UHGV virus genome: UHGV-0123126
Direction: 5' to 3' (one strand)
DNA: 39,300 bases
DNA from: a virus
Shown: one piece after another, positions 1,592 to 36,296 of the stretch
Position numbering within the stretch: position 1 is the first letter of the stretch
Layout of the letters: each line of letters begins with the position of its first letter
Made by a program: the position numbers and the translations under genes
The notes under the pieces: model-generated
What the model saw: the letters and a program-made list of their open reading frames with translations, nothing else
The model's database searches: none
Told to the model about the DNA's origin: nothing

Positions 1592-1630
1592 GATAGGTAG
1601 ATACTAACTTATATAAATTTTACTGTAAAC

Positions 1631-1906
1631 TCACTCAAAAGTGCTGATGCTTAAAATACGCTCAAGATGTTCGGCATCTTCATCACTGATTTGTTGAGTC
1701 TCTTCTACGTACCAACAGTTGCCGTTATGCCAACAAACACCATCATCATCAACCATCACTGAATCAGCGTCATGACCTGTATATTCAACGAGAATACGCT
1801 GGATCAGCGCGTCAGTTTCTTCGTCGTTAAGGCCATCGGCTTTGACCATAAAAAGCGGAAACACGTCATAGACAGTGCTGGTAACGATTCGAACTAAAAC
1901 TCTCAT
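1631..1906 (-). CDS. Hypothetical acidic protein
   Basis: 91-aa ORF, co-directional with neighbours, A/T-rich motif upstream of start. Confidence 0.5.
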   Translation of the reverse strand: MRVLVRIVTSTVYDVFPLFMVKADGLNDEETDALIQRILVEYTGHDADSVMVDDDGVCWHNGNCWYVEETQQISDEDAEHLERILSISTFE

Positions 1907-1961
1907 GTGTTTTTCCTTTTGTGGTTAGTGTTTACTTATTTTGTTAGTTATGAATAGGCGA

Positions 1962-3312: not shown

Positions 3313-3513
3313 TTATTTCCCCTTTGCTTTGATTAATGAGTTGATAAACTTACGACCAGCAATAAGACCGATTACAGGAGCACCAAAACCAACGACAACT
3401 CCAAACATGACGGCTAAATCACTCTTGGTAGAAATCAGCGACGGAACCAGTAAACCGTAGATGAGAGCCACTGAAAGGCCTGTGGCTACTGCCAATAGAT
3501 AGATTTTGATCAT
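3313..3513 (-). CDS. Small two-helix membrane protein, co-operonic with the SPFH lipoprotein (possible NfeD-like partner)
   Basis: 66 aa, two hydrophobic segments; stop 4 nt upstream of the SPFH start. Confidence 0.5.
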   Translation of the reverse strand: MIKIYLLAVATGLSVALIYGLLVPSLISTKSDLAVMFGVVVGFGAPVIGLIAGRKFINSLIKAKGK

Positions 3514-3545: not shown

Positions 3546-3561
3546 ATAAGTAAGTACTTAT
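3546..3561. promoter_or_regulatory. Palindrome ATAAGTA-AG-TACTTAT upstream of the SPFH operon
   Basis: Member of a recurring ATAAGTA..TACTTAT palindrome family (also 15746..15759, 23317..23338, 26840..26859). Confidence 0.4.
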
Positions 3562-3572
3562 ATATTTTCAAG

Positions 3573-3600
3573 AGATAAAAAGGCGTCCTGTGGACGCCTT
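3573..3600 (-). terminator. Rho-independent terminator (AAGGCGTCC-TGT-GGACGCCTT)
   Basis: Perfect 9-bp stem immediately 3' of the recombinase stop, followed by a T-run on the minus strand. Confidence 0.6.
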
Positions 3601-3604
3601 GTGT

Positions 3605-5944
3605 TTACTCTTCTACTGACTCGGTGGGGTTGTCTTTTGCTCTTCGGTCGTCGATTGCCTGCAAAGCCGCAATGATTTCAGCCAGTGGCTTCTCCCGATA
3701 CATCTCGACGATCTGCGATTTGGTGTATTTCTTGTCACCAATTTCAACTCGCCCGCTGGCGTTCTTTGGCAGGTATCCTTCTTCCAGCATGTACTCGACG
3801 AGCGATTCGATAACGTCGAGGCCACGAGTAGGATCGAAGTAGAATTTCCAGGTGCATTTGCCATACGGTGGTGCAACTTTGTTTTTGATGCATTCTGCGC
3901 CTACGTCCTGGCCGATCTTCTCTTTACCATCCTTCATCACCGATGCACCAAGACGGATACGTACAGAAGCGTAGAACTTCGGTGAATCTCCACCTGGCGA
4001 CGTAGTAGGGTCGCCAAACATTACACCGATTTTTGTGCGAACCTGATTCAAGAAGATGATGCAGGCGTTGTATTTGCGTGCCCACAAAGCCAGAGTAGGG
4101 AAGTTCGCACTCGTCGCACGAGCCAGTGCCGTATTGTCGTTCATGTTTAGCTGATCTTTGTCTTTGGCTGTGCCTTCAGCCATCTTTTCGAACTTCTCGG
4201 CTTTGGAGTTCGGAACCATAGACGCAAGAGAGTCAGCCACGATACAGATAGGTGCTGATTCGGGGATAAGCTCTTCATCACGAACCAATTTAAGTATTGT
4301 GCCGATCAACTCTACAGAGTCTTCGAAGGTATCTGGCTGCTTGTATACCCACTGACCGTCATCCTCATCTGCGTTCAGGCCATTGGCTACAGCCAGGCCA
4401 ACGTCAAAACTGTTTTCATGATCGAGGAATACCGCCAGACCATCTTGTTTTTGAGCGGAGATCATCGCTGCTGTTGCAAGGAATGTGTTGTGGCTGATAA
4501 TCCCGTTAGACCAGAAAGAGTGTGTTTCCGGCATCGCTACGTCGAACGTTGGTGCTTCACCTTCCTCAATAGCCACGACTTCGTCGTAGAACAAGTTAGA
4601 GCCAATTACCGCTGCCAGTTGTGCAAACAGATGCTCGTTAAAACGATTCTTTCTGCCAATGAAGGAGACATAGATTTCTCGCAGTTTGTCTATTCCGACA
4701 CGATCGCCGCGGCCAATAACGTGGTCTACCAGAGCGTAGTCTTCACGGGTGGTCTTGGTGAGCGACTCGTAGAGTGATTTCACTAAGCCGCTGATGTGCG
4801 GAACATAGCCTGAGTAAGTGCGGTCAAAACCAATGTCCCGTTTGGTTGCCACTGATAAACGTGCCGGAGATTCGAAACCAATCGTTGACAGAAAAAGGTC
4901 GTAATTAGAGCCACTGAATGACAGCCGGTAATATGTATTTTCATAACCCGCGACGTGTTTTTCAGAGATAGTTGACGTAATCCCCAGATTCAGGAGCATG
5001 AGGCGAATTTGCTGTAGCAGCAGCCCACTCGCGCTCACAACCTCAATGCAGCGACCATCATTGACGTGGCATTCCAGCTCAAAGTAGCCGCGAAGGAATG
5101 CAATTTGAGCCTCGCTATTGGCGCGACGCACACTCAACGGAACCTGCTTGCCAGCAGCTTTCTCATACTCCAGACCATATTCTTTAAAAAGCAGCGAACG
5201 CACCTCTTTGCTAAACAGCACATGGTCTTCCGAGCCGTTATGTTTTCTCGTAACTGGCATCTTGTCTGATACCAGCGAAATGAGGCGGTAGTACTCATCC
5301 TTGATGAAAGGATCTGTGTTAGAAAAATTCACTGAATTTTCAGAGGCCACGTATCCGTCAGCAATTAAATAGCCCATCAGTTTTGCGATATTGGCATCCA
5401 GGTGCTGATCGCCGAATTGATGTGTGCCAACCATTGAAGGAATCGTGTCGCCTACACTGATTTTTTCAGCATGTCGCCAGACGACATTACCTAAGTCGTC
5501 AACCACACGGATTGGGTGACGGAACGTAGCCTCGATATAACCGCCTGATGCCAGCTTAATACGCTTGAATTTGCGACGGTTGTTCCATGTCAGGTGTGAG
5601 GTCTTCTCTATCACGCCATTTTCATTGATGAGTCCAACGTTATGCTCTACATCGCGAGTAGTGCATGTCGCTTTGTACCCTTCAATCTCAAACAACTCTT
5701 TCACTGTTACCATTCCACGCTCCGTCAGCAGCATGGTGTCTGCGGTAACACATTTCCCCGCGCTTGGTGGCCCGAATACTTCTACGATACGACCACATGG
5801 GAAACCGCCATCGTAACGACCGGAAATAGCTTTGTTTAACGGAGGAAAGCCTGTGTCAATCCAATGAGTTACTTTCTGAATTTCGTCGTTGCTACCGATT
5901 TTCTTTTTCAGAGCAAGTGCCAGTGCGGATTTTCCTTTTGCCAT
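3605..5944 (-). CDS. recA: RecA-family recombinase (RecA/UvsX-like) interrupted by an intein; 779-aa precursor, about 357-aa mature protein
   Basis: N-extein ends GRIVEVFGPPSAGK (Walker A); C-extein resumes TFLATAAM... and contains NQVRTKIGVMFGDPTTSPGGDSPKFYASVRIRLG, closely matching the E. coli RecA core recalled from memory. Confidence 0.9.
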   Translation of the reverse strand: MAKGKSALALALKKKIGSNDEIQKVTHWIDTGFPPLNKAISGRYDGGFPCGRIVEVFGPPSAGKCVTADTMLLTERGMVTVKELFEIEGYKATCTTRDVEHNVGLINENGVIEKTSHLTWNNRRKFKRIKLASGGYIEATFRHPIRVVDDLGNVVWRHAEKISVGDTIPSMVGTHQFGDQHLDANIAKLMGYLIADGYVASENSVNFSNTDPFIKDEYYRLISLVSDKMPVTRKHNGSEDHVLFSKEVRSLLFKEYGLEYEKAAGKQVPLSVRRANSEAQIAFLRGYFELECHVNDGRCIEVVSASGLLLQQIRLMLLNLGITSTISEKHVAGYENTYYRLSFSGSNYDLFLSTIGFESPARLSVATKRDIGFDRTYSGYVPHISGLVKSLYESLTKTTREDYALVDHVIGRGDRVGIDKLREIYVSFIGRKNRFNEHLFAQLAAVIGSNLFYDEVVAIEEGEAPTFDVAMPETHSFWSNGIISHNTFLATAAMISAQKQDGLAVFLDHENSFDVGLAVANGLNADEDDGQWVYKQPDTFEDSVELIGTILKLVRDEELIPESAPICIVADSLASMVPNSKAEKFEKMAEGTAKDKDQLNMNDNTALARATSANFPTLALWARKYNACIIFLNQVRTKIGVMFGDPTTSPGGDSPKFYASVRIRLGASVMKDGKEKIGQDVGAECIKNKVAPPYGKCTWKFYFDPTRGLDVIESLVEYMLEEGYLPKNASGRVEIGDKKYTKSQIVEMYREKPLAEIIAALQAIDDRRAKDNPTESVEE
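4487..5752 (-). other. Intein (422 aa) with LAGLIDADG homing-endonuclease domain, inserted in the RecA P-loop
   Basis: Begins with Cys right after GPPSAGK, ends ...SHN followed by Thr; internal LMGYLIADGYV motif. Confidence 0.85.
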
Positions 5945-7217: not shown

Positions 7218-8246
7218 TTACAGAGAGTCCAGCTCTCTCAGTAGGTCATCCAGACCTTCATCTTCCGTCGCAGATGCGGCTGCTACAGATGTCGCTGCGA
7301 CTGCTTCAGACTCTTTGACTGATACTGCAACGGCAGCGGAACTTGCTTCTGGTTTAAATTCAGTTTCAACGGCACGGAGGATTTCTTCATCAACCAGACT
7401 GGTTGGTTCAGAAGCCGGTGTGTGCGCGGTTGCTACAGCCGTCGCTCCTTCTGTATGACCAGTGACAGAGCCAAATCCAGGTAGTGCCGCAGCCGATGTT
7501 TTCGCGGTTGAGGAAATTGCTGGTGCAGATGCTGCGGCAGTTGGTGCAGCGATGCCAATCAGACGACCCATAGTGCGAACTGTCGACAGAAGACGAGTTT
7601 CATCAGCCTGATTTGCGTATGCGATCAGATCATGCTGGGTGTTCCAGAATTTATCTTCGATATCGCCTTTGTAGACTTTACGCTTAGGCGAGACGTCATA
7701 TTTGGTATCGCGACCAGAGCCAGTACGTTTAATCAGGAATGCGTAGCCTTCCTCTTTGCTCAGTGGATTGCCGATATCATCAGCGATGTCTTCGGTGATT
7801 GCTTTGCAGATATCATCGAATACAGTAGACGGCAGCTCGATTAACTGGCATTTCTCAGCATCTGCGAAATCCTCACGAGCAGAAAGAATGCCGTTGACCA
7901 GGTAGCGAGGAGTGGCACGCATTTGACCGATGCGTTCTTCCATTGCTTTGTTACCCTTGTGACGAGCGCGACCTTCCATAACCATTTCGCATAGCTGACA
8001 AGCGCGACCGTGAGTATGTTGCTCACAAATATAAGCGTTGGTTGCTTCTTTACCTTCCTCGTTCTGATACTTAACGTAGTGCATACCGAAAGTCTGGAAG
8101 AACTTACCGTTTGGGTCGTCTTTATTCGGGAAGATGCGGATATAGTTGACGCCGTCTTTTAAGCGAGTCAGATCAACGTTGTTGCCACGTTTGGCGGCAA
8201 TGTCTTCACGAGTTTTGTTAAGCAAATCAAGTAATGTCTTAGACAT
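7218..8246 (-). CDS. Putative ssDNA-binding protein (gp32-like: Cys/His zinc site, Ala/Ser/Thr-rich linker, acidic C-terminal tail)
   Basis: CEQHTHGRACQLCE cluster, low-complexity linker, C-terminal DEGLDDLLRELDSL; sits between replication and recombination genes. Confidence 0.5.
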   Translation of the reverse strand: MSKTLLDLLNKTREDIAAKRGNNVDLTRLKDGVNYIRIFPNKDDPNGKFFQTFGMHYVKYQNEEGKEATNAYICEQHTHGRACQLCEMVMEGRARHKGNKAMEERIGQMRATPRYLVNGILSAREDFADAEKCQLIELPSTVFDDICKAITEDIADDIGNPLSKEEGYAFLIKRTGSGRDTKYDVSPKRKVYKGDIEDKFWNTQHDLIAYANQADETRLLSTVRTMGRLIGIAAPTAAASAPAISSTAKTSAAALPGFGSVTGHTEGATAVATAHTPASEPTSLVDEEILRAVETEFKPEASSAAVAVSVKESEAVAATSVAAASATEDEGLDDLLRELDSL

Positions 8247-8363
8247 GTGTTTCTCCTTGTTGTGATTTGGCCGATGGCGCTATGCGCGTTGGGCTTTCGT
8301 TCATTCGTGGCTCTTTCGAGCTGTTAAATGATAGATCAGTACTTACTTATTATCTATCAAAAA

Positions 8364-8795
8364 TCAACGGGGAGTAATAAAGCGTTCAGAGCCTAATCGC
8401 TCTAATTCAACGATGGCCATCTTTGACGCCTGAACGATCATGTCTCGGCGATGCGAAAAGGCGGCGACAGCATGTTTGTATATGTCTGCGATGTGCCGTG
8501 CTTCATCCAACTTCTGCCGTTTAGACAGATACTGTGGGTTTGTTTTAACCTTAGCGTCCAGTACAGACTCGTTGAACTTAATGCCGTTCATACTCAAGTT
8601 CTTACGCTCTGTGTCGTATAGCTTTGCTTCAACAGCTTCAAGGTTAAGTTTTGCCTCTGCGACATCTCGATCTGCCTGCGCTAGTTTTGACCCATACTCC
8701 ATTAAAAGCCGTGGCTGTTTACGCCATACTTCCTCAAGGTTGTCGCGGTCGAACTCCAGATCGGCCATGATTTTAGAAAAAATATCAGTGTTCAC
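8364..8795 (-). CDS. Hypothetical protein; weak resemblance to UvsY-type recombination mediators; GTG start
   Basis: 143-aa ORF with GTG start and AGGAA SD; resemblance judged by eye only. Confidence 0.5.
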   Translation of the reverse strand: MNTDIFSKIMADLEFDRDNLEEVWRKQPRLLMEYGSKLAQADRDVAEAKLNLEAVEAKLYDTERKNLSMNGIKFNESVLDAKVKTNPQYLSKRQKLDEARHIADIYKHAVAAFSHRRDMIVQASKMAIVELERLGSERFITPR

Positions 8796-9003
8796 TCTAA
8801 TAGGTTCCTACTTATAAAATCTGTATCAATTATATCAAACAGAGAACGGGTTTATGGCGTCATGTCAACTTTGTTCAGGGGAAAAATATTGAGATCACCG
8901 AAGATAATTAGTTGTCTTATTTTGGTAAGCTGTGCTGACCATCTTTAGGTCACATACATGAGATGGATGGGGGTGTGGCATGAACGGATGAAATTCAGTC
9001 GCC

Positions 9004-10044: not shown

Positions 10045-10228
10045 AGCATCGTTGGTTTGCAAGACAGACCTTATGTAAGCAGTTTTAGTAAAGCAGTCTC
10101 AGTTCAGTGTTATCTTCTGATTTCCCTTCTTCGTGAGTCTCCTCCTTAAGTGCCTAAGTAAGTCCCAATCTATACAGATCAAATTCTCGCCGCACTATGT
10201 GGCTCACAAAATTAAGAAGGTAATATCT

Positions 10229-10444
10229 ATGTCTAATAAAATGACTGGTTTAGTAAAATGGTTTAACTCTGATAAAGGCTTTGGCTTTATTTCTCCTGCT
10301 GATGGCAGTAAAGATGTTTTTGTACATTTTTCGGCAATTCAGAGTAATAATTTCCGCACTTTGGAAGAAGGCCAGCAGGTCGAATTCTCTATCGAGAATG
10401 GGGCTAAAGGCCCAGCAGCAGCAAATGTCGTTGCTCTAAGCTGA
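10229..10444 (+). CDS. Cold-shock protein, CspA family (CspB/G/I-like), 71 aa
   Basis: [38 protein letters not shown]... carries the RNP1/RNP2 motifs of CspA-family proteins; the track ORF is extended upstream. Confidence 0.9.
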
Positions 10445-10720
10445 TTCAACGCTGATGATCCTCATTTCTACAATAACGAAGACGGTGTAAGCCTGAGTGG
10501 ATAGATTTGTAGGATTGTACAAGTTGAATAAATTAGCATGGTAAGGCCATGCTAATTAAATCGACACAACGGCCAGTTTATTCCATAAAAGTGAATTGCC
10601 CATTGTGGCGAAATGCGGGGTTGCCGCATGAATAGTCAAAGGCAGAAGCTAACTGCCGGCATGGCAAAACAAAGTGCGTAAGAGGAGTGACTTCCTCAAC
10701 AAGCGCCATAATTCTTTATA

Positions 10721-15682: not shown

Positions 15683-15745
15683 GCGCTTTTCCTTTGTTCT
15701 CTAATGAGCGTTCAAGTTCTTATATAAATATACCATTAACTATGG

Positions 15746-15759
15746 TAAGTAGTTACTTA
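15746..15759. promoter_or_regulatory. Palindrome TAAGTA-GT-TACTTA within conserved GGTAAGTAGTTACTTATC, between the CobT-like and CobS-like genes
   Basis: Near-identical GGTAGGTAGTTACTTACTTATC occurs at 31411..31430 upstream of another minus-strand gene. Confidence 0.4.
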
Positions 15760-17984: not shown

Positions 17985-18197
17985 TTAACAGATTCTGACG
18001 GCTAAAGACCCGGAGCCGGTATTGAGAAGCGTGAAGCGTTTGTTGTTAAGTTCGAATATAAAGCCAGTTGTGTCATTCACACCAACCTGAATCTGCTCAT
18101 TCGGTAGATCGGTGAGGATGTCAGCTACACACTCATCAGCTAATTTCTGTACGTGTCCGATCTCAAGAGCGATTAGGCTGGAAATAGTGGTGTTCAT
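17985..18197 (-). CDS. Hypothetical small protein, first gene of the cobT-cobS-dnaE operon
   Basis: 70-aa ORF preceded by TATAAGT-type A/T-rich motif. Confidence 0.45.
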   Translation of the reverse strand: MNTTISSLIALEIGHVQKLADECVADILTDLPNEQIQVGVNDTTGFIFELNNKRFTLLNTGSGSLAVRIC

Positions 18198-18374
18198 TCA
18201 ATCAATCCATTCTAACTTATACTATGGTAAGGAATACTACTAAAATCTATATCAATACTGAATACATTCATATCATATGCAAGTTGATTTTCTTACCTGT
18301 TTTGGGCTAATTTTTCTCCGTGCAATGGCCTTTAACCGGTCTTTTAAGTGCCTATCGAAAAAAATGATAATAGC

Positions 18375-18417
18375 TTTACAACCCTAACCTTTGATGTAAT
18401 ATCGGTAAGCACTTACC
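18375..18417 (+). promoter_or_regulatory. Sigma70-type promoter (TTTACA, 16-bp spacer, TAATAT) followed by palindrome GGTAAGCACTTACC
   Basis: Hexamers at 18375..18380 and 18397..18402; 14-bp palindrome at 18404..18417; divergent intergenic region. Confidence 0.45.
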
Positions 18418-18448
18418 AGAGAGAATTGAACGCGCAAAGGTTGTAACC

Positions 18449-18835
18449 ATGTCTGATAACAAGATTGAATTTATAGAAAGTCGCTACGCTGCTTTTATCG
18501 CAGGGTTGATTGAATCCTCACCTATGAGCCAGGCCCAGATAGCCAAAACAATTGGGTATAAAAACGCCAACAACCTTTCTTTAATTAAAAGCGGCAAAAT
18601 TCCTTTGCCTATCGATAAGGTTCGTCCGCTGGCGCTGGCACTGGGCATTGAGCCAAGTCGTCTTATGATGATGGTGCTGGAAGAACGCCAACCCGAACTC
18701 GCAGCATTTTTATACAAAGAAGGCACTGCTCCTCTTAACGAGGACGAAAAACAGGTTCTTGCTGCATATAACGAGCGATTCGGTAAAGAGAAAGGCGCAT
18801 CACAAAAGGTTGTTGAGGCCATAAAGTCTCTATGA
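18449..18835 (+). CDS. Helix-turn-helix (XRE-like) transcriptional regulator
   Basis: 128 aa; HTH segment SQAQIAKTIGYKNANNLSLIKSGK; divergent from the replication operon, convergent with the recombinase. Confidence 0.7.
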   Translation: MSDNKIEFIESRYAAFIAGLIESSPMSQAQIAKTIGYKNANNLSLIKSGKIPLPIDKVRPLALALGIEPSRLMMMVLEERQPELAAFLYKEGTAPLNEDEKQVLAAYNERFGKEKGASQKVVEAIKSL

Positions 18836-20389: not shown

Positions 20390-20563
20390 TGTTACCTCAT
20401 AGAATTGATATGCAACTTTACTTACAAAGAAGATAGGTGTGTGCATACTTATCTTTACAGTCTGCATTATAAAGCTATTAAAGCCTCGATCAATCTATTA
20501 ATTAAGGCATTGTTTGGTTAACATTAGCCTAATATTTTATAGTTAGTAGAGTGAAATACATAC

Positions 20564-21826
20564 ATGCCTTTTTTAATTTTCATTATTATACTACTGCTCA
20601 CCGTCATTTTTTGGGATTGGGTTGTTTTAAATGGTCAAACTGTTGGAACATTGGCTACAGCATTTGCTTTTATAGCAACAGCATGGAATGCCTACGAAGC
20701 GAGAAAAAGTGCAAAAGCAGCTTTTTCAGCCCTTCAATTAACAACTGAATCATTGTTCGAAATGCGAAAGAGTGCATTTAAACAATGGTTTGATTCCTTA
20801 TTAAATCAACATGATGAGTTATGTCTTCTTGCAAAACAAATTATCGATAAACACAAAATTAATTTAAACAGCGATGAGTTACATAGACTATATTATCCAT
20901 TGGTAAGACAGCATGAGGTAATACAGTATGTGAAGCATATTATTAATATATTTGAGTATGTGGATGGTTCATTTTATATTGATGGGGAATGTCTCAAGGA
21001 AAAAAGAGCGTATGTGTCACAATTAATTTTTAAAATCCCACCTCAGATGAAGTTGATCATTGCTATCTTTGGATTAAAAATCGATTATTGTGAACATATT
21101 AATTCGGAAAAACTGTGTTGTTTATTGAATAAATATGATTTTTTCAATGATGAAATATTTTTTGATGATGCTTATTCAAATATGCCTTATCTGGATACAT
21201 TCATAAACCTTAGATTCAACAAAATATTCAAATCTCGAATGATAAATTATTTTGATAATATCATTAAAAGTTATTATGTTCCATCGGACGTTAAAAGGGA
21301 CTGGATGTTTCGACACCCAAAGCTCGTACCGTCGGTTCTTATGAATTATAAAACTCCTTGTTCTCCTATAATTAATGATTACTTTGAGAAGTTGCCTTTA
21401 CATGTAAGAAACTACTTTGAGGAACTACTTAAAACCGCGAATGATAGAGTTACTCATTTTGACGTTTACATCCCACGCCTTATTGGTTGTTCAATCGTGC
21501 AACATTACGAAGATGTGCCTTCCGAAAAAAACAGGTTAAATGACAGGAATGATGTAATAGCTATGGCTGAAGATTACATCGAGAAAAGAAAATCTAATCA
21601 ACTAGATTACATACTTGAAGATATATACTTTAAGAGTGACGAAGATATAATCCCAGGCCACCATTTAATTGTGGCATTTGATGACTATGAATATAAATTA
21701 GCACTAATTAAGATAAATGAAAATAAAGATAACGATAATCTTTTAAATCGAATTTATACTGAATCCAGTAGCATGGTTAATGAATATAAGCGCGAAATAT
21801 TAAAATTGGGCGACTATGCAAAGTAA
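20564..21826 (+). CDS. AT-rich membrane-anchored protein of unknown function (two N-terminal TM helices, about 370-aa cytoplasmic domain); candidate abortive-infection/defence protein
   Basis: 420-aa ORF with GC content clearly lower than flanking DNA; only long plus-strand gene here; own terminator. Confidence 0.65.
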   Translation: MPFLIFIIILLLTVIFWDWVVLNGQTVGTLATAFAFIATAWNAYEARKSAKAAFSALQLTTESLFEMRKSAFKQWFDSLLNQHDELCLLAKQIIDKHKINLNSDELHRLYYPLVRQHEVIQYVKHIINIFEYVDGSFYIDGECLKEKRAYVSQLIFKIPPQMKLIIAIFGLKIDYCEHINSEKLCCLLNKYDFFNDEIFFDDAYSNMPYLDTFINLRFNKIFKSRMINYFDNIIKSYYVPSDVKRDWMFRHPKLVPSVLMNYKTPCSPIINDYFEKLPLHVRNYFEELLKTANDRVTHFDVYIPRLIGCSIVQHYEDVPSEKNRLNDRNDVIAMAEDYIEKRKSNQLDYILEDIYFKSDEDIIPGHHLIVAFDDYEYKLALIKINENKDNDNLLNRIYTESSSMVNEYKREILKLGDYAK

Positions 21827-23142: not shown

Positions 23143-23316
23143 TGCGTTCTGCAATCACACTCGCTCAGTGTGTCCCATTTCGGTAACGAGGCTGGAAACT
23201 GACCTCGCTGGTGTTTGGCTTATTAGGCTACTGCCAGATAGACTTCTTCGTTTGCACTTGTATTTAAGTTCAAACAGTCGCGTCTCAACGAAAACAAAGT
23301 CATCTTATACACAAAA

Positions 23317-23338
23317 GATAAGTAAGTAAATACTTATC
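23317..23338. promoter_or_regulatory. Palindrome GATAAGTA-AGTAAA-TACTTATC, 3' of the small-gene operon
   Basis: Perfect 8-bp arms; same ATAAGTA/TACTTAT family as 3546, 15746, 26840. Confidence 0.45.
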
Positions 23339-23347
23339 AATATGTTT

Positions 23348-23638
23348 TTATTCGGTTGTGACTTTTTTGATCAAGGCCACTCTACGACTAGGTGTTCTTG
23401 TAATGGTGGCAGTGAATCGTTTCGCTTGGATAGTAATGGTTTCGTTCTCCTTAAGTTGCCCGTAGCGAGTTTCCACCAGGGTGCCAAGACGCCACAGACC
23501 ATCATCGATACGTTTATGACTAGCAAATTTAATCAGCAACAGTTTTACGACTAACTGACCTACGTAAAAGGCGAATGCGACTCCGGCCGCTAAGAAATAG
23601 GTGGCCAACCACCATTCCCAAGAAGTTAAATTGCTCAT
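23348..23638 (-). CDS. Hypothetical membrane protein (96 aa, N-terminal TM helix)
   Basis: Start overlaps upstream stop (ATGA); preferred over antisense ORF 23342..23554. Confidence 0.5.
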   Translation of the reverse strand: MSNLTSWEWWLATYFLAAGVAFAFYVGQLVVKLLLIKFASHKRIDDGLWRLGTLVETRYGQLKENETITIQAKRFTATITRTPSRRVALIKKVTTE

Positions 23639-24162: not shown

Positions 24163-25481
24163 TCTTTATCTCCGATTCGATCTTCTGTATCGCGTAAGCA
24201 ACGCGGCCATTTCAGTCGGGGGTGGCGTAAGCTGCCATCCGGTGTTTTCTCGTGACAATGAACCTCAACAATACGACCACGGTACTTCTCTTTGTTGTTC
24301 CAGATCTCGTCCAGATATTTATGCTTAATACCGCTCGCACGAACGATGACGCCGTTTTCAAGACGAATAACAATTTTTCCAAGTGTGTTGGCAAAACCAG
24401 AGTCCGGGTCGCCCGGCTCAAAGTCGATAATTTCACCATCTTCTGAATCTTCGTCTTTTAACTTCCACCAGCTGCGGGTACGTTTAAACTCGTAAACAGA
24501 GTTCGGATCTTTGCCCATCTCCCCTTCTTCGTTATCGTCCAGGCGTTTCATGAAGCGTTCGATGAAGTCTTCGTGGCTATGGATGATATAGAACGGATGC
24601 AGGTGAATGTCTTGTGTGTAGCCTTCACTGCGATCGTTTTTGAACAACGCCACCAGCATAGCCAGGCGCTCTTTCAGCTTCATACCTGTCTTTGCATACT
24701 CTTTGGATTTAGCCTGTGCTCGCCATTCCGGTAGGAAGAAGTCGAAAACATGATAAATAGCGCCAATTGCCTGCACGTTCTTTTTGCGCAATGCAGATAC
24801 GGACTGGTTAAATGAACCGGCAGTTCCTTCACCATCGAAGAAGATGTGTTTGTGGCCTGAAAGTTTGCCTAATTCGAGCATGGCTGGCTTTAGGTGATCG
24901 AGAGACGTGATTGGATTACCAGTACGAGAAAGGAAGTTAACCTCTTCCTCGTCAACAATAACCTCGCAAATTACTCGCAAACCATCGAGCTTAAGACTGC
25001 CAATCATCGGCCATTTGGCTTTAGGATTTGGCTTGAAGGGGTATTTGTCGCCTTTTTCTTTATACGGTGACGCCAGCTGCACCTCGAATTTCGGAATGGG
25101 ATTTTCAAAAACCTTGTTACATAGGCTAATCCCAACGCCAGCTTTCGGATCTTTTAAGAGGAAACGACGGAACACGTCCTGCCCATCGGCGCACATTGAC
25201 GCCACGATAGACTCAACAGCAGCTATTGCTGCGTTCCCCGTCAGCTCGCGAGAGGCCAGCTTATTCAGTATATCAATGGCTTTTTCGTCACTTGGGACGG
25301 ACTCACTAAGCGGCTCTGCCACTTTGTATTTCTTTACCCCAAAACGGATGAAAGGGTTGAGCATCAATGAAACCATGCTTTGCTCGAAGTCATCCATGTT
25401 GGCCAATGCCTCTTTTTTTGCATTGGTTCCCATAGCTTTCATTTCGTCCAGCTTATGCTTAAGTGCGATCAACTTTTTCAT
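24159..25481 (-). CDS. ATP-dependent DNA ligase
   Basis: Adenylation motif SLKLDGLRV (KxDG); EGEMGK and WWKLK regions resemble ligase motifs; 440 aa. Confidence 0.85.
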   Translation of the reverse strand: MKKLIALKHKLDEMKAMGTNAKKEALANMDDFEQSMVSLMLNPFIRFGVKKYKVAEPLSESVPSDEKAIDILNKLASRELTGNAAIAAVESIVASMCADGQDVFRRFLLKDPKAGVGISLCNKVFENPIPKFEVQLASPYKEKGDKYPFKPNPKAKWPMIGSLKLDGLRVICEVIVDEEEVNFLSRTGNPITSLDHLKPAMLELGKLSGHKHIFFDGEGTAGSFNQSVSALRKKNVQAIGAIYHVFDFFLPEWRAQAKSKEYAKTGMKLKERLAMLVALFKNDRSEGYTQDIHLHPFYIIHSHEDFIERFMKRLDDNEEGEMGKDPNSVYEFKRTRSWWKLKDEDSEDGEIIDFEPGDPDSGFANTLGKIVIRLENGVIVRASGIKHKYLDEIWNNKEKYRGRIVEVHCHEKTPDGSLRHPRLKWPRCLRDTEDRIGDKE

Positions 25482-25948
25482 TGTTGTTTTGCCTCCATAT
25501 GTTGATCGATTTGCTCATGTGTTTCTTTTGTTGTTTCTTCAAGCAACGCCGCATACACGTCAGTGATCGCTGTTTGTGATGTGGTGCTCTTCTTAACCAT
25601 GCTATTAATCGTTACACTGTCACGTTTTCGTTTTATAGTTCTGGCTTGTTTATTCCGTTCTTCAACCTCCTTAATGAGCGCGGTCATATCTTCGAAATAC
25701 AGAGATTCTCCTTTACGAATCTCTTCAACCATCATTTTTAACGCCTTGCATTTGCCTGCTTTGATAGCGGTTGCGCACGACTGGAAAGAAGTTCGAGGAA
25801 GACGGTTTTCTTTGAAGGCAAGAATGGTGTGCTGGCAAACGGAATAGCTGCAATATGCCGACTCACCGTTTATCTTTACTTCCTCACAACGAAGTGAATA
25901 ACCGTTATTTCCTGAAATAGAAGGGATTTTTGACAAATCAGCTTTCAC
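25478..25948 (-). CDS. Hypothetical Cys-containing protein upstream of the ligase (start uncertain)
   Basis: 156-aa track ORF, stop overlaps ligase start; no motif recognised. Confidence 0.4.
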   Translation of the reverse strand: MKADLSKIPSISGNNGYSLRCEEVKINGESAYCSYSVCQHTILAFKENRLPRTSFQSCATAIKAGKCKALKMMVEEIRKGESLYFEDMTALIKEVEERNKQARTIKRKRDSVTINSMVKKSTTSQTAITDVYAALLEETTKETHEQIDQHMEAKQQ

Positions 25949-26015
25949 AATTACCGCCAGAAATAATCCTGTGCTTACCTATCATTATTTGCGTAAAAAA
26001 CGACACACAGAGAGC

Positions 26016-26798
26016 TTACCAACTTCCCCAGCTAATCATCTTGCGCTGATCGCTTTCTAAGCGATAGGGGGCAAGAAGCTCTGTGACATGATTGGTGGCG
26101 TATGATTTGGCCTCTTGCTCTATCATCGGTAATTCGTTAGCAATCCTGACCATCTTCCCAGCAAATTCCGCCATTACGCCATCACATGCCTTCCCAGCAT
26201 CAATAACGATATGCACCAGATCCAACTGGCTTTTGCACATGTCGCAAAGAGTCGAATATTCGCTTTCCCTGATTAGGTTTACAGCATCATTAGCCCCTTT
26301 ATTAATCAAAACCTCCAACAGATTTGTCGGGGTGACGAAATCGGCTTTCAGAGACAATGTTGGTTCAGCTTTTACCGACAGCAAGTAATCTTCAAAGTTT
26401 TGCTTGTCTTCCAGCAAAGCTAAACTGCGCATAGCTCGAATTGATTCTCGAATGACGGCTTCAATATGTTCGTCACCTGGAGGACAGATAATGGTATCTG
26501 TATAGATGACTCTGCCATCAAACCACGCCCCAACCTGCACTTTTAGAGTTCGTAAGTTTTCTTTGCGTACAAAAACAACTAATGCAGAACGTCGTGCATG
26601 TGCAGGTTCGCCCCATACGCGCAACTTAACCTTCAGATAAGGTAGCCCCGGTAGCGGGATCTCGACCAAACGAGTGGCGATATGATCCATTGCCGTATTG
26701 ACGGCTTTTTCAATGATGTCTAGCCGATTGCTCTCGCTGATTTCTAAACCAGTTTTATCAATGATGTTGCAGGCTAATCTCTTAATTTCTTCTTTCAT
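26016..26798 (-). CDS. Hypothetical protein (260 aa)
   Basis: Long ORF, co-directional with the replication genes; no motif recognised. Confidence 0.5.
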   Translation of the reverse strand: MKEEIKRLACNIIDKTGLEISESNRLDIIEKAVNTAMDHIATRLVEIPLPGLPYLKVKLRVWGEPAHARRSALVVFVRKENLRTLKVQVGAWFDGRVIYTDTIICPPGDEHIEAVIRESIRAMRSLALLEDKQNFEDYLLSVKAEPTLSLKADFVTPTNLLEVLINKGANDAVNLIRESEYSTLCDMCKSQLDLVHIVIDAGKACDGVMAEFAGKMVRIANELPMIEQEAKSYATNHVTELLAPYRLESDQRKMISWGSW

Positions 26799-26839: not shown

Positions 26840-26859
26840 ATAAGTAATCATCTACTTAT
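26840..26859. promoter_or_regulatory. Palindrome ATAAGTA-ATCATC-TACTTAT in the divergent region between the 260-aa ORF and the Sel1 gene
   Basis: Perfect 7-bp arms; motif family member. Confidence 0.4.
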
Positions 26860-26979: not shown

Positions 26980-28017
26980 ATGAAACATTTCAAACCAATA
27001 TCTTTCTTTATGTTGTCGCTATTACTTGTTTCGGGGAGTGCACATGCCTATGAAATACAAAAGCTGATCGATGCGGCAAAAGCAGGCGACGTTGAGTCAC
27101 AGAGTGCTTTAGGTATCGACTATATGAAAGGTATTCATGGTGTCGAAAAAAACTACGATGAAGCCAGAAAATGGCTTGAACTGGCGACTTCTAAGGGGAA
27201 CAAAGAAGCGTTTAATGCTCTAGGTATAATGTATGCCCTTGGGTATGGGGTTGATAAAAATTTCAAAAAGGCTGAGGAACTCTTTAAGAAAGCTGGTGAT
27301 GCAGCTGGAGGCAACTCTTATCACAATCTGGGTGTTATTTATCATAAAGGACTTGCGGGTAAGAAAGACCAAAAACTTTCCCTGAAATATCACAAACTTG
27401 CAGTAGAGGCTGGCGACCCTGAATCTGCGTCATATCTAGGACAGTTATATTATGTTGGCGCAGGCGTGCCAAAAAGCTACAAAAAGGCAATAGAGTATTA
27501 TAAAAAAGGAATCGAACTAGGCAGTGCATCTGCATTGGCGAATCTTGGCATTATGTATGAGTATGGTGAAGGGGTTAAAAAAGATTATAAAAAAGCAGCT
27601 GAGCTTTATCAGGCAGCTTGCGATAAAGAAGATAAAAATGGCTGTGATTACATTGCAGAACTAAAAGAAAGCGGTAAATACCAACCATCAGCAGCAAGAT
27701 CTAAAGCAAAATCCTCCACTCAGCGACTTATTGCTAAATCCATTGATAAAGGCGTTAACGCAACATTTACCTGGCAGGGTGATGATGCCACCTTCACCGC
27801 TAATGATGGCAAAATTGACTGCACTTTCCTAAAGGATTTTTCAGAGAAAGGAGGCAATCTGGCTACCTCGTTTGTTTGCACCGATAACGTTCAAATCATC
27901 CTGAAGCAATTCAGAGATACCAAGAATGCCTACCTCGCGGTAATGACTGACAACTTCAACACAGAAGTTAAATCATTTTCGGTCAATGTTTACGTGACTA
28001 ATACTGGTTCAAACTAG
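26980..28017 (+). CDS. Secreted Sel1-like repeat (TPR-like) protein with N-terminal signal peptide
   Basis: Signal peptide ending SGSAHA; repeated about 36-aa units with A-x-x-G-[VI]-x-Y and K-A-x-E-[LW]-[YF]-K-K-A spacing. Confidence 0.8.
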   Translation: MKHFKPISFFMLSLLLVSGSAHAYEIQKLIDAAKAGDVESQSALGIDYMKGIHGVEKNYDEARKWLELATSKGNKEAFNALGIMYALGYGVDKNFKKAEELFKKAGDAAGGNSYHNLGVIYHKGLAGKKDQKLSLKYHKLAVEAGDPESASYLGQLYYVGAGVPKSYKKAIEYYKKGIELGSASALANLGIMYEYGEGVKKDYKKAAELYQAACDKEDKNGCDYIAELKESGKYQPSAARSKAKSSTQRLIAKSIDKGVNATFTWQGDDATFTANDGKIDCTFLKDFSEKGGNLATSFVCTDNVQIILKQFRDTKNAYLAVMTDNFNTEVKSFSVNVYVTNTGSN

Positions 28018-30655: not shown

Positions 30656-31396
30656 TTAATTAGATAGGGGATCAATAAACCGCCGTGCTTCTTCCAGTTC
30701 TTCTGGAAAGTGGGCGGAAATAAGGCGCTCTGGAACGATTTCCATTAGCCAGATAGCGGAGAAAATTGCGCGTATGCGCTTGCTGCGGGGGATGGTGCGT
30801 AAACGCTCCAGAATCCACTCAAAATAGCTTTCCTGAATCGGGTTGAACTGCATGTCTCCCATATGCTTAAAGCTAACGAGAGAGTCATCCAGACGGGTTG
30901 TTGCGCGTCTGGCTAATTTCTCTTCGAATATCTCAATCAGCTCTGGCTGCCATAAATGCTGTGGGCGCGGCAGCTTGTCCCACAGCCGTCGTGCAGCTGC
31001 GGAAAGAACGGTGGAGATAAAGTAGTCGTATGAGCAGCAATAGCGGTCAGCATACTGGCGTGCTTTCCATAGCGACGTTTTATTGGCAGTCGACAACTCC
31101 TGATAAGGCAGGCGTTTTAACCCGGTGGTGAACGGAGCTGTTTCAAAGTGTTCGCGACCGTGCGTCAGCATGATATTTGAGTACTGACGTTTGTATGCCT
31201 CCGTAAAAAGACAGGTGGCCATGAGAGGATGCATGTCGCGGTAATCAAACCACTTCGTCTCGAAGAGTTCAGCCTCGTCTTTACAGCGCGACAAACCAAT
31301 GTTTTCAGCGACCCACTTGTCCATAACAGCGGTATTCCACTCTGTCATGAAGTCGTACTGGTCGTTGTCGATGGTATCGAAAAAGATTTGGCTCAT
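30656..31396 (-). CDS. Hypothetical protein (about 246 aa from ATG 31394..31396; track ORF starts at GTG 31405)
   Basis: AGGTGA SD 7 nt before the ATG; conserved GGTAGGTAGTTACTTACTTATC upstream. Confidence 0.5.
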   Translation of the reverse strand: MSQIFFDTIDNDQYDFMTEWNTAVMDKWVAENIGLSRCKDEAELFETKWFDYRDMHPLMATCLFTEAYKRQYSNIMLTHGREHFETAPFTTGLKRLPYQELSTANKTSLWKARQYADRYCCSYDYFISTVLSAAARRLWDKLPRPQHLWQPELIEIFEEKLARRATTRLDDSLVSFKHMGDMQFNPIQESYFEWILERLRTIPRSKRIRAIFSAIWLMEIVPERLISAHFPEELEEARRFIDPLSN

Positions 31397-31678
31397 GTGG
31401 CTCACCTGGTAGGTAGTTACTTACTTATCACAATGAACGGATGATAGCGACTGGTGGCAGTTTTTGGAAGTGGAAACGGAAGGGAGTTGTTCTGGTGGTG
31501 TCTTTTAAAAGACCTGCTTCCGTATATATTTAATAAGTTACTTATTATTTATATATACAGAAGCAGGCATAACTTGTCGTCTTAGACGCCCAGAAGCTCT
31601 ACACTTTGAGCCTGTTAAATTGATTAAAAACTTATGTGTAAAATAGAACGCATTAGTCAGTAGCTAAGAGATGCAATA

Positions 31679-35064: not shown

Positions 35065-35757
35065 TTAGACCATCCCTTTCTGGTGTTTTCTTACCTGCGA
35101 CCAGGCAATGAATCCTGCCACAACAATAGTGGCAATACCGAAGATGATGCGTACTGTATCCCCGCTAGAGATATGACCTTGTGCTTTATCCATAGCAGCG
35201 GAAACCTGCGGCATAACATCGGCCAGCTGCGCCAGACCAATACCTGCTGTAACAGTTGCGCCTGCAGTTTCTTTAGTTACAGGAACAGCCTTCACGGTTT
35301 TCACCGGCTTAACAACGCCAGCTCGACGCAGACCTTCCTCAATAACTTCTGCCGCATACCAGGTGTTCAGCGTTTTTAGCGGGCCTCGGCCATTCTCGTG
35401 GCGAATGATTGCCTCAACCAAAGGTCGAAGGATGTCGTAATCATGCAGATCGATGATCATGTCTGCGGTTACACCAACGGCTTTAGACACCTCATTAATG
35501 TAGGCGTCAGTATTGTTTTCATTCGGCGGTGCCCAGCGTTCAATAACTTCACGAATGGTATCGATACTTGTGCCGTCTTTTGCGCGACGTTTATCGTGGT
35601 AGGTAATTAGAGTCACCGCCAGCGCACGAATCCCCCAAACAGGGTCTTTAAACGTGCAAAAGCGCGGTTCGTCTGGATTCGCAACCAGACCTTGCCACGG
35701 TGATCCTTTATCAAGATTACCGGGGTTATTATTACGAATGCCTCTCGGAGTCTTCAT
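35065..35757 (-). CDS. Putative endolysin-like protein with C-terminal TM anchor (catalytic class not recognised)
   Basis: Position between membrane protein and spanins; motif PRGIRNNNPGNL; ATG at 35755..35757 has AGGAG SD (track ORF extends to 35784). Confidence 0.4.
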   Translation of the reverse strand: MKTPRGIRNNNPGNLDKGSPWQGLVANPDEPRFCTFKDPVWGIRALAVTLITYHDKRRAKDGTSIDTIREVIERWAPPNENNTDAYINEVSKAVGVTADMIIDLHDYDILRPLVEAIIRHENGRGPLKTLNTWYAAEVIEEGLRRAGVVKPVKTVKAVPVTKETAGATVTAGIGLAQLADVMPQVSAAMDKAQGHISSGDTVRIIFGIATIVVAGFIAWSQVRKHQKGMV

Positions 35758-35770
35758 CCTTGATCTCCTG

Positions 35771-36094
35771 TTATTGCAGTCCACTTTTTACGCCATACGC
35801 GGCTAACCCCAAAAGCAGTGCGGTAATAATGAACGACGTTATTTTAGAAACAATGCCGCCAAAGAACCCACTTGAGATGGAATCTAACCGGTTAAGGAGT
35901 TTGTCCAGATTGGAGTGTTGAATACTATGTTGCGCCGGGGTCATATCACCAAAGTAGGTTTTCAGCTGATCATTGACCTCCTGGCCAATTTCTTCACGTA
36001 GCTCTTTACCTAATTTGCCAACAACCTCCCGAGCAACGATCGCGGCAATACGCTCAACTTGCTCTGTTGTAACGCCCGCCATCTCGTTCGACAT
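35771..36094 (-). CDS. C-terminally anchored membrane protein, possible holin-like lysis component
   Basis: Single TM helix near C-terminus; GGAGG SD before the internal ATG at 36092..36094 (track ORF starts at 36106). Confidence 0.35.
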   Translation of the reverse strand: MSNEMAGVTTEQVERIAAIVAREVVGKLGKELREEIGQEVNDQLKTYFGDMTPAQHSIQHSNLDKLLNRLDSISSGFFGGIVSKITSFIITALLLGLAAYGVKSGLQ

Positions 36095-36296
36095 GTTTTC
36101 CTCCATGAAAAGTCAAATCGGGATGGCGGATTTATATCACACTTCTCCTTTCAATTATAGGTATATACTTACCTATCTATGTATATACCGTTTAACGGCT
36201 GTTCAAATTCGTATCTAGTAACTCACTAATATATCCCTATGATTGCGGCTGTGAGATCGCATTTTAAACCTCACAGCCATATAAATAATGTCTAAA

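Follow-up and report, generated by a model that had tools for sequence, protein, structure and literature searches.

Dispersed palindromes as putative operators of a candidate XRE-type lysogeny repressor in an SSU5-type phage-plasmid

Introduction

Lambdoid phages carry six operators, which are found in the immunity region only, and KorB of the IncP plasmids, a member of the ParB family, acts through 12 dispersed palindromic operators (OB). As a kind, dispersed operators of a repressor are not new, with earlier examples in P1, L5 and phiC31. The lytic phage D29 retains stoperators of the L5 type (PMC5712189), and P1 has 11 late promoters with a 9-bp palindrome that is bound by Lpa (LPhot, AAGTTACTT) (PMC10695390). 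Here, we describe a palindrome family that recurs in the virus genome UHGV-0123126, which was analyzed as one stretch of 39,300 nucleotides (the window). The original prediction, made from the letters of the window, had flagged the copy at 23317–23338 and proposed that the palindromes form a phage-specific promoter or operator. With slightly better than even confidence, we read the palindromes as dispersed operators of a putative XRE-type lysogeny repressor, encoded at 18449..18835, which overlap lytic promoters.

The window shares 96–98% identity with Escherichia phage Cyrano (pLF82, OV696614) across the aligned 74–88% of its length, and ~80% identity with Salmonella phage SSU5. Judged from these identities, it is a phage-plasmid of the SSU5 supergroup. 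SSU5-type elements are the largest enterobacterial phage-plasmid group and include pHCM2 (S. Typhi), pMT1 (Y. pestis), pLF82 and resistance-carrying Klebsiella plasmids. In the searchable literature, no description was found of the motif or of a lysis-lysogeny or repressor circuit of the SSU5 group. The orientation of the window is the reverse of the Cyrano record, and its minus strand carries most of the genes, including those for replication, recombination, tRNAs, partition and lysis; the motif was read on the minus strand throughout.

Consensus, Enrichment and Placement of the Palindrome

The motif was identified as a 20-bp palindrome, ATAAGTAAGT·ACTTACTTAT (full 20-mer ATAAGTAAGTACTTACTTAT). 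Its position-by-position consensus was the symmetric 20-mer ATARGTAAGT·ACTTACYTAT, with TA favored at the center, and the conservation of the left and right arms was no different (Wilcoxon p=0.23). A single register, rA-TARG-TAAG-TA-CTTA-CYTA-Ty (TARG-TAAG-nn-CTTA-CYTA), held all of the sites. The spacers of two and six nucleotides that had been proposed as variants of the family proved to be a single site seen in two registers, an appearance caused by the 4-bp periodicity (TAAG TAAG) within each arm.

The genome-wide motif search against a shuffled background, which had been suggested as a check, returned a strong enrichment. The pattern ATAAGTA-N2-6-TACTTAT gave 3 matches in the window and none in 100 shuffles. 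With up to two mismatches, the TAAGTANNTACTTA core gave 17 matches against 1.2 expected, a number reached by 0/100 shuffles, and the unified 18-mer TARGTAAGNNCTTACYTA, at up to three mismatches, gave 12 matches (11 sites) against 0.33 expected in shuffles. A chance origin of the motif is excluded. In Cyrano, ATAAGTAA and ATAGGTAAGT were the top over-represented 8-mers and 10-mers of the genome and TAGGTAAGT was the top 9-mer, with a mild strand bias only.

The position weight matrix (PWM) analysis of Cyrano covered its first 85 kb, while Cyrano 85–108 kb and SSU5 40–103 kb were covered by DNA pattern search alone. The 85 kb held 21 sites, and non-coding DNA, which makes up 11.6% of the sequence, contained the centers of 20 of them (P=3e-18), so the intergenic placement originally described holds. 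Seven of the Cyrano sites fall in the structural and lysis module. In SSU5, core matches (15, 14 and 12 per third of the genome, against ~0.5 expected) were present at syntenic positions, and syntenic sites were also present in the Klebsiella phage pJN2-26. All lytic classes had units preceded by sites. The structural and lysis units were those of the portal, the scaffold and major capsid protein (MCP), the major tail protein, the tail fibre and the holin; the other lytic units were the helicase region, the ligase region with tRNA, cobS-like, uvsY/SSB, sbcD, RNR, thyX and dam. PWM scans detected no dispersed-type copy (PWM ≥19 bits) directly upstream of the genes that were expressed in lysogeny according to the LF82 study (toxin-antitoxin pairs, parA, repA).

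Copies of the Palindrome in the Window

The four copies first described as perfect or near-perfect were all found in place. Three of the supposed half-sites, at about 1600, 8338..8352 and 31411..31430, turned out to be full members (1594–1611, 8332–8349 and 31410–31427), and the fourth, at 18211..18230, is a half-site only (CTTACC). Three further members were added at 36158–36175 (holin), 20434–20451 and 18402–18419 (promoter of the helix-turn-helix (HTH) gene). The copies and the HTH gene are listed below.

1594..1611, minus strand: putative operator copy TAAGTTAGTATCTACCTA, within the spacer of the predicted sigma-70 promoter TTTATA-16-TATCAT (1617->1590); abuts the start of the CYRAN_60 homologue; its Cyrano counterpart is junction 59|60, with an induction step of +4.46 log2.
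1921..1938, minus strand: weak copy TAAGTAAACACTAACCAC with the left arm alone intact, upstream of 1631..1906(-); PWM 19.9, 4 mismatches.
3547..3564, minus strand: putative operator copy, first given as 3546..3561 (ATAAGTAAGTACTTAT), within the spacer and -10 of the near-consensus promoter TTGAAA-17-TATTAT (3571->3543); after a terminator (3580–3600) and before a 66-aa membrane-protein gene, 3313..3513(-); its Cyrano counterpart, junction 55|56, was at the floor in LB and had an induction step of +4.51 log2.
8332..8349, minus strand: putative operator copy TAAGTAAGTACTGATCTA, in the gap that separates the uvsY-like gene from the gp32-like SSB gene (7218..8246); its outer arms fall on TAGATA-17-TATCAT (8356->8328).
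8795..8820, minus strand: weak, doubtful copy TAAGTAGGAACCTA, upstream of the uvsY-like gene; PWM 15.5.
15742..15759, minus strand: putative operator copy, first given as 15746..15759 (TAAGTAGTTACTTA in GGTAAGTAGTTACTTATC), between the cobT-like and cobS-like genes, with a conserved -10-like box TATAAGA 21 nt downstream.
18375..18419, plus strand: HTH promoter and palindrome, TTTACA-16-TAATAT (18375–18402) followed by GGTAAGCACTTACC (18405–18418).
18449..18835, plus strand: HTH protein, 128 aa, probably XRE-type, CYRAN_45 homologue; candidate repressor.
20434..20451, minus strand: putative operator copy TAAGTATGCACACACCTA, ~45 nt upstream of the start of the glutaredoxin-like gene.
23317..23338, minus strand: flagged site GATAAGTAAGTAAATACTTATC (minus strand GATAAGTATTTACTTACTTATC), an 8+6+8 palindrome downstream of 23348..23638(-) and upstream of the tRNA cluster.
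25964..25981, minus strand: copy TAGGTAAGCACAGGATTA with the left arm alone intact and 4 mismatches, between 26016..26798(-) and 25478..25948(-); the Cyrano orthologue at 35606 scores PWM 17.1.
26841..26858, minus strand: putative operator copy, first given as 26840..26859 (ATAAGTAATCATCTACTTAT), 6–8 nt upstream of an extended -10-like TGTGTAAGAAT; precedes 26016..26798(-) and has orthologues in SSU5 and Cyrano; the Cyrano gene downstream, CYRAN_34, is partly expressed in the lysogen.
31410..31427, minus strand: putative operator copy TAAGTAAGTAACTACCTA, which precedes the start of 30656..31405(-) by 14 nt and follows a probable strong terminator hairpin (31497–31553).
36158..36175, minus strand: putative operator copy TAGGTAAGTATATACCTA, upstream of the holin gene (35771..36106); 30 nt separate its dyad from a conserved extended -10 (TGaTATAAA) downstream, and SSU5 has a perfect 20-bp palindrome, GTAGGTAAGCGCTTACCTAC, as the orthologous site.

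The distance of 15–40 nt upstream of start codons that had been given for the family was only partly right, as the distance from dyad to start ranged from ~9 to ~137 nt. The flagged site precedes the tRNA cluster instead of a start codon. The ATG at 23342(+) starts only an unannotated open reading frame (ORF), which is antisense to a gene annotated in the 98%-identical Cyrano record; the genes concerned sit on the minus strand, which corrects the earlier account.

Promoter Geometry

A consensus scan returned, on the gene strand, three to four sites at which the palindrome takes up the spacer of a sigma-70-type promoter and its outer arms supply the hexamers. One of these is TTGAAA-17-TATTAT (3571->3543), a 10/12 consensus match and the second best within 20 kb. 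At the flagged site, the right arm gives a -35-like TTTACT, 17 nt upstream of the -10 (TAAGAT in the window, TATGAT in Klebsiella). At 26841 and its relatives, the site lies 6–8 nt upstream of an extended -10-like TGTAAGAAT, and the cobS and holin dyads lie ~28–30 nt upstream of a conserved -10 box, which places them at ~-40 to -42.

Taken relative to the putative -10 boxes or starts, the dyad thus ranged from ~-17 to ~-42 without helical phasing, and the Cyrano sites at 5442, 15524 and 67878 were located between a stop codon and a terminator-like hairpin. This variable, unphased geometry argues against a fixed-geometry activator or a self-contained promoter element and is normal for repressor operators. 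Between the two functions originally offered, an operator for a phage regulator is the better supported; a self-contained promoter did not stand, with no element at a fixed distance and with some sites between stop codon and terminator. A self-contained phage or sigma-factor promoter was ruled out on the same grounds, as nothing was conserved beyond the 24-bp block and the -10 had no fixed offset.

Conservation of the Arms and the Nature of the Site

The information-content profile of 21 aligned sites displayed no conservation outside positions -12..+12 and no -10 or -35 at a fixed offset. Footprints were obtained from IMG/VR loci, 80 for the cobS-like gene and 80 for the SSB gene, and the conserved islands in these intergenic regions were the palindrome arms, a -10-like box and the ribosome-binding site. 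The central dinucleotide was free to vary (CT/CC/TC/GC/TT upstream of cobS; TA/CA/TG upstream of SSB). At the TerL/portal and holin sites, one arm decays without compensation in the other when SSU5 is compared with Cyrano and the window. The predicted RNA hairpins were weak and inconsistent (-2.2 to -9.4 kcal/mol), no Rfam family matched the palindrome, and a stable, compensated stem-loop of the kind that marks an intrinsic terminator or structured RNA was not found. Given that the half-sites are conserved, the center is variable, no element lies at a fixed distance and the RNA hairpins are weak, the palindrome has the hallmarks of DNA recognized by a dimeric, symmetric protein and not those of an RNA structure or terminator.

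The SSB intergenic region holds a further element. The ~85-nt SSB leader (8247–8330, minus strand) was almost invariant across the 80 loci, which belong to several lineages, and contains small GC hairpins. The leader of the gp32-like SSB gene may be an autoregulatory translational operator of the T4 gene-32 type.

Expression in Lysogens and on Induction

In LF82 within macrophages, the prophage is partly induced and phage production is blocked (PMC9928086). The published per-gene RNA-seq values for LF82/Cyrano in LB, medium and macrophages (PMC9928086, S1 Table) were used to compare adjacent plus-strand Cyrano gene pairs, with induction taken as macrophage 6 h minus medium 6 h. In this gene-level test on hand-transcribed values, the induction step averaged +1.09 log2 at the 21 motif junctions and -0.48 at the 56 others (Mann-Whitney P=4e-4). 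Motif junctions made up 8/11 of the largest steps (55|56 +4.51, 59|60 +4.46, 11|12 +4.1). Motif sites and the edges of inducible units thus coincide. The structural units of MCP and the major tail protein went up together with 'early' units, by +4.1 to +4.5, a rise similar to that of CYRAN_46 (+4.7), the small gene divergent from the HTH gene.

Uninduced expression dropped across motif junctions (-1.07 vs +0.36 elsewhere), for which the terminators co-located with several sites could account; the step-down fits unit boundaries, be they terminators or roadblocks. The Cyrano promoter at 57445 corresponds to 3571->3543 of the window. Its downstream gene was at the detection floor in LB despite the 10/12 consensus match, so something must repress it, and the palindrome is the sole conserved element there.

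CYRAN_46 (window 17985–18197, minus strand) encodes an acidic protein of 70 aa and is the most strongly induced lytic-strand gene in macrophages. It could not be assigned to a family (PHROG 2627, unknown function), displayed no signature of DNA binding, and is a candidate early effector or antirepressor.

The hairpin at 31497–31553 (minus strand; -30.2 kcal/mol, z=-7.4), with an outer stem of 18 bp, an apical stem of 7 bp and UCUUUU after it, is probably a strong terminator between the lysogenically expressed parA/relE-like operon and the lytic genes; expression falls by ~6 log2 from CYRAN_30 to CYRAN_31 at this boundary. Its apical stem-loop holds a P1-LPhot-like AAGTTACTT, and its arms recur in Cyrano near 78094.

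The Helix-Turn-Helix Protein and Its Switch Region

The HTH protein matched Pfam HTH_19 weakly (E=8e-4; 19.7 bits, under the 30.2 cutoff) and PHROG 8, 'transcriptional regulator', at E=1e-11. It had no sequence relative in the PDB and no S24 peptidase domain. Its transcript was ~10x background in the lysogen. The gene was found in ~995 SSU5-supergroup plasmids, always beside an integrase, with representatives in E. coli, Klebsiella (56% identity), Salmonella, Yersinia pMT1 and Acinetobacter.

The palindrome GGTAAGCACTTACC is located directly after the -10 of the HTH promoter and reads CTGG-TAAG-TG-CTTA-CCGA in the unified register. Together, the promoter and palindrome form the sole block that the intergenic region, diverged elsewhere, shares with Klebsiella pJN2-26. 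A copy that overlaps the promoter of the repressor candidate is thus present in the interval between this gene and the divergent early genes, and this palindrome at +1 is presumed to be an autoregulatory operator.

Lineage Covariation in Acinetobacter

The comparison with Acinetobacter was made on 40 kb of each of two elements, A. baumannii NZ_CP155459 and pDD520. Synteny was conserved across the small gene divergent from the HTH gene, cobT, cobS and dnaE. In both relatives, the repeated unit was altered on both arms (TCAG…CTGA; TTAG-TAAG…). NZ_CP155459, whose HTH protein is 48% identical, carries the dispersed motif TCAGTCAGnnCTGACTGA in at least 14 copies per 40 kb, including copies at the orthologous cobS, cobT and sbcD positions and three in the switch region between the HTH and small genes. 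pDD520, whose HTH protein is 38% identical across the aligned HTH region, carries TTAGTAAGnnCTTACTAA with two switch-region copies. The position orthologous to 15742..15759 holds the lineage-specific variant in both Acinetobacter phage-plasmids. The architecture was kept, with 4-bp units arranged as an 8+2+8 palindrome at unchanged places in the genome. Within each lineage, the unit is altered symmetrically and uniformly, which would be expected if the specificity of a protein had shifted.

Alignment of the HTH proteins from the three lineages showed that the recognition helix starts with Asn in the lineages that have a TAAG unit and with Arg in the one that has TCAG. This covariation of helix residue and unit is suggestive of a link between the HTH protein and the motif. 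Among the 14 window proteins searched, which included all small regulator candidates, the HTH protein was the sole DNA-binding candidate recovered in both Acinetobacter segments. We therefore infer from sequence that the HTH protein is the candidate binder, as the motif occurs at its own promoter, copies occupy the Acinetobacter switch regions, the variants covary and no other small regulator candidate is conserved across the three lineages in the syntenic segments examined.

The Acinetobacter elements also encode a sigma-70-family protein between the cobS-like gene and dnaE (pDD520, L173 15101–15766; L172 14915–15583), the pDD520 and L172 homologues being 27% identical. Searches of the window, Cyrano 1–85 kb and SSU5 1–40 kb returned no homologue. 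Strand-specific ACGGTACAAAA repeats of pDD520 looked promoter-like but were rejected as iterons clustered by repM; eight ACGGTACA(A/T) iterons are grouped next to that gene (L173 33544–34056).

Weighing the Repressor Against Its Alternatives

Several observations weigh against a repressor encoded by the HTH gene. The cobS and holin sites lack a -35, and their dyads at ~-40 to -42 occupy the classical position of an activator. The P1 late promoters use a similar palindrome of AAGT/ACTT half-sites, AAGTTACTT, as an activator site (PMC10695390). The copy at the HTH promoter has perfect inner and degenerate outer units and the dispersed copies show the opposite pattern, so a single protein binding both types is not guaranteed. 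In the enterobacterial elements, the divergent early-gene promoter (window 18198–18260) holds a half-site only. The association of the HTH protein with the motif is correlative and comes from 40 kb of each Acinetobacter element. The tRNA region (~15x background) and CYRAN_34 (~4x) are expressed in the lysogen though motif-linked, which means that repression would be incomplete at those sites, and the RNA-seq test shows coincidence with boundaries only, not the sign of regulation. Finally, no homologue of the HTH protein was found in SSU5, where the sites are intact, which could equally point to another protein as their user. A refutation of the HTH protein on this ground was withdrawn, given the presence of the gene in so many related plasmids; SSU5 was obtained as a free phage and may derive from an element whose repressor was lost while the sites were kept.

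The strongest alternative is an activator site, comparable to those of P1 Lpa, Mu Mor/C or class II CRP, through which an early phage activator would recruit host RNA polymerase to ~30 weak lytic promoters and, bound at +1 of the HTH promoter, would shut off repressor synthesis. We regard this as possible, though improbable on balance. It would account for the coincidence of induction steps with motif junctions and for the excellent sites in SSU5 without the HTH protein, and it suits the several promoters that have an (extended) -10 only, with the dyad at the activator position noted above or at ~-30 (TGTAAGAAT class). However, the position of the dyad relative to the -10 is not fixed, several sites lie in the spacers of near-consensus sigma-70 promoters that need no activator and are silent in lysogens, and the three Cyrano sites between stop codon and terminator-like hairpin have no evident promoter to activate. 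No cross-lineage activator candidate emerged among the 14 window proteins, and tblastn with Lpa gave no match in the window, Cyrano 1–85 kb or any SSU5-like phage record. PF25716 matched none of the nine window and Cyrano candidate proteins scanned. Homology to P1 Lpa was rejected on these searches, and the Lpa homologue search returned P1-like proteins only.

It is unlikely that a different phage protein (Cro-like, ParB/KorB-like or an unrecognized small protein) binds the operator while the HTH protein controls only its own switch or the adjacent integrase. The differing conserved units at the HTH-promoter copy and the single full copy in the enterobacterial switch region speak for such a protein, Cyrano does have ParB-like proteins and other unassigned small proteins, and KorB of the IncP plasmids offers a precedent. 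Against it, expression of the ParB-like CYRAN_119 and CYRAN_120 is close to the floor in lysogens, for which reason a ParB/centromere function was also rejected, and a motif copy precedes these genes too. For the other small window proteins tested, no homologue was detected in the Acinetobacter segments, which have the motif architecture in common with the window, and both Acinetobacter lineages carry 2–3 copies in the HTH switch region.

An RNA hairpin between cistrons, serving as a processing, stability, translational or antitermination signal, is very improbable: the sites do lie in transcribed intercistronic gaps, some abutting a ribosome-binding site or start codon, the Acinetobacter changes TAAG->TCAG and CTTA->CTGA keep pairing, and some copies fold better than shuffles (best z=-5.1, at 23310–23345), but the stems are weak, shuffles fold as well as the best-conserved SSB and cobS sites do (z=+0.31 and -0.96), arm decay between orthologues is uncompensated, the primary sequence is conserved family-wide and changes alike at all sites of a lineage without site-by-site covariation, and copies are present in divergent promoter regions. 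The sites of host factors (Fur, RcsAB, NarL heptamers, SlmA and the H-NS nucleation site) were considered and rejected, since each bears a partial resemblance and none matches the full consensus.

Proposed Repression Circuit

Under the favored reading, in which the HTH protein is a lysogeny repressor, a repressor dimer would recognize both arms of rATARGTAAGT·ACTTACYTATy. Some 25–35 operators per genome, in the short gaps between lytic units, would be occupied, and the controlled units would comprise replication, recombination, nucleotide metabolism, tRNAs, structural and lysis genes. A ~100-kb prophage would in this way be kept silent by one repressor until induction. An operator occupied over the -35, spacer or -10 would exclude RNA polymerase, and the copy at +1 of the repressor promoter would lead to negative autoregulation. 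The promoter-less copies between stop codon and terminator could act as roadblocks, extra binding sites or cooperative anchoring points. Repression as the sign of regulation and the roadblock function are both inferred.

Induction would inactivate the repressor, after which all units would fire in parallel, each at its own promoter strength. Cyrano responds to ciprofloxacin and the HTH protein has no S24 domain; an antirepressor is therefore likely to be involved.

A bolder version of this circuit, which we rate as doubtful, can be put forward. One small XRE-type repressor would silence a 100-kb Gram-negative phage-plasmid through ~30 palindromes, some of which would be intra-operon bidirectional roadblocks analogous to stoperators, and the sites would have co-evolved with the recognition helix (TAAG/Asn -> TCAG/Arg) across the supergroup of SSU5, pKpn, pMT1 and Acinetobacter elements. 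If true, it would define immunity groups of clinically widespread elements.

The putative 20-bp operator, the candidate repressor and the map of ~30 presumably controlled units would make the immunity circuit directly testable. Possible uses include immunity typing by operator or recognition-helix variant and engineered induction or curing, and the motif map would supply transcription-unit boundaries for genome annotation.

Further Observations on the Window and Its Relatives

A second set of repeats was detected in Cyrano 1–85000, where AAACACATG occurred 10x (0.47 expected), always on the coding strand, and represents a translation-initiation context common to many lytic genes (...GGAAAAACACATG). 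CTATAGTGGAT had 6–8 copies in Cyrano and 0 in the window.

The first ~870 nt of the window, including an insertion sequence (IS) remnant, had no alignment to Cyrano. An ALIL pseudoknot (the IS3-family frameshift signal, Rfam 120 bits) and a transposase-like ORF were located at 417–533 and 488–814 on the minus strand. At 10051–10469 (plus strand), a full-length cspA thermoregulator (Rfam 185.7 bits) and a cold-shock protein gene lie beside a HicAB-like region. Two plus-strand ORFs interrupt the minus-strand lytic modules. The first, 20564–21826 (420 aa), sits in a low-GC (0.35) segment and had no NCBIfam match; the second, 26980–28017 (345 aa), is TPR/Sel1-like and adjoins the primase gene. Both look like accessory cargo. 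Cyrano CYRAN_114 (L006 15780–16301) is a full-length FljA-type 'repressor of phase-1 flagellin' (Pfam E=1e-80) and a possible lysogenic-conversion gene acting on host flagellin.

Comparison With Known Systems

The gp71 stoperators of mycobacteriophage L5 and Cluster A, ~25–35 sites for a single repressor in the short gaps of early and late operons (PMC9283540, PMC6550527), are paralleled here by tens of dispersed intergenic sites in early and late operons (21 in Cyrano, 11–12 in the window). In both systems, the early promoter or switch region has copies of its own, lineages that differ in the site differ in the repressor as well, and a lytic relative without the repressor keeps the sites (D29 there, SSU5 here). 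The L5 sites, however, are 13 bp long, asymmetric and monomer-bound, lie in one orientation and stop elongation, whereas the present motif is a symmetric 20-bp palindrome, with many copies over promoters, in an extrachromosomal phage-plasmid of a Gram-negative host. Since the sites are symmetric, with arms that do not differ in conservation, and show no dependence on orientation, the motif is outside the stoperator class as defined.

P1 C1 (AF234172) is likewise the repressor of a phage-plasmid and acts on a common operator at many promoters over ~100 kb, its own included. The P1 operators are asymmetric and 17 bp long, C1 is not of the XRE type, and the P1 late genes are under Lpa and not directly under C1, whereas here the same site precedes replication as well as structural and lysis genes. 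The P1 Lpa promoters share with the present sites the AAGT/ACTT half-sites between the -35 position and the -10, the multiple copies and the marking of inducible lytic units. They differ in half-site spacing and in a palindrome fixed at ~-22 from the -10 without a -35; several of the sites described here have good -35 hexamers, and there are copies inside strong sigma-70 promoters as well as in the switch region of the candidate repressor. As no Lpa (PF25716) was detected among the proteins and records searched and no fixed spacing exists, the motif is not a P1 Lpa promoter.

With the KorB OB sites and the phiC31 inverted repeats, the motif has in common one palindromic operator at a dozen or more promoters and the global silencing on a mobile element that we propose. 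KorB is of the ParB family, whose genes are near the lysogen floor here, and the phiC31 repressor is unrelated. The CI-Cro systems of lambdoid phages and 434 resemble the present one in a putative XRE-type repressor divergent from early lytic genes, in an operator over the repressor's own promoter and in palindromes with conserved outer half-sites and a tolerant center. Unlike those, most copies here are tens of kb away, before nearly every lytic unit, and the candidate repressor has no S24 domain. In function, the proposed network thus most resembles those of the L5 stoperators and P1 C1, while the site itself and its placement at the switch most resemble an operator of the 434/lambda type.

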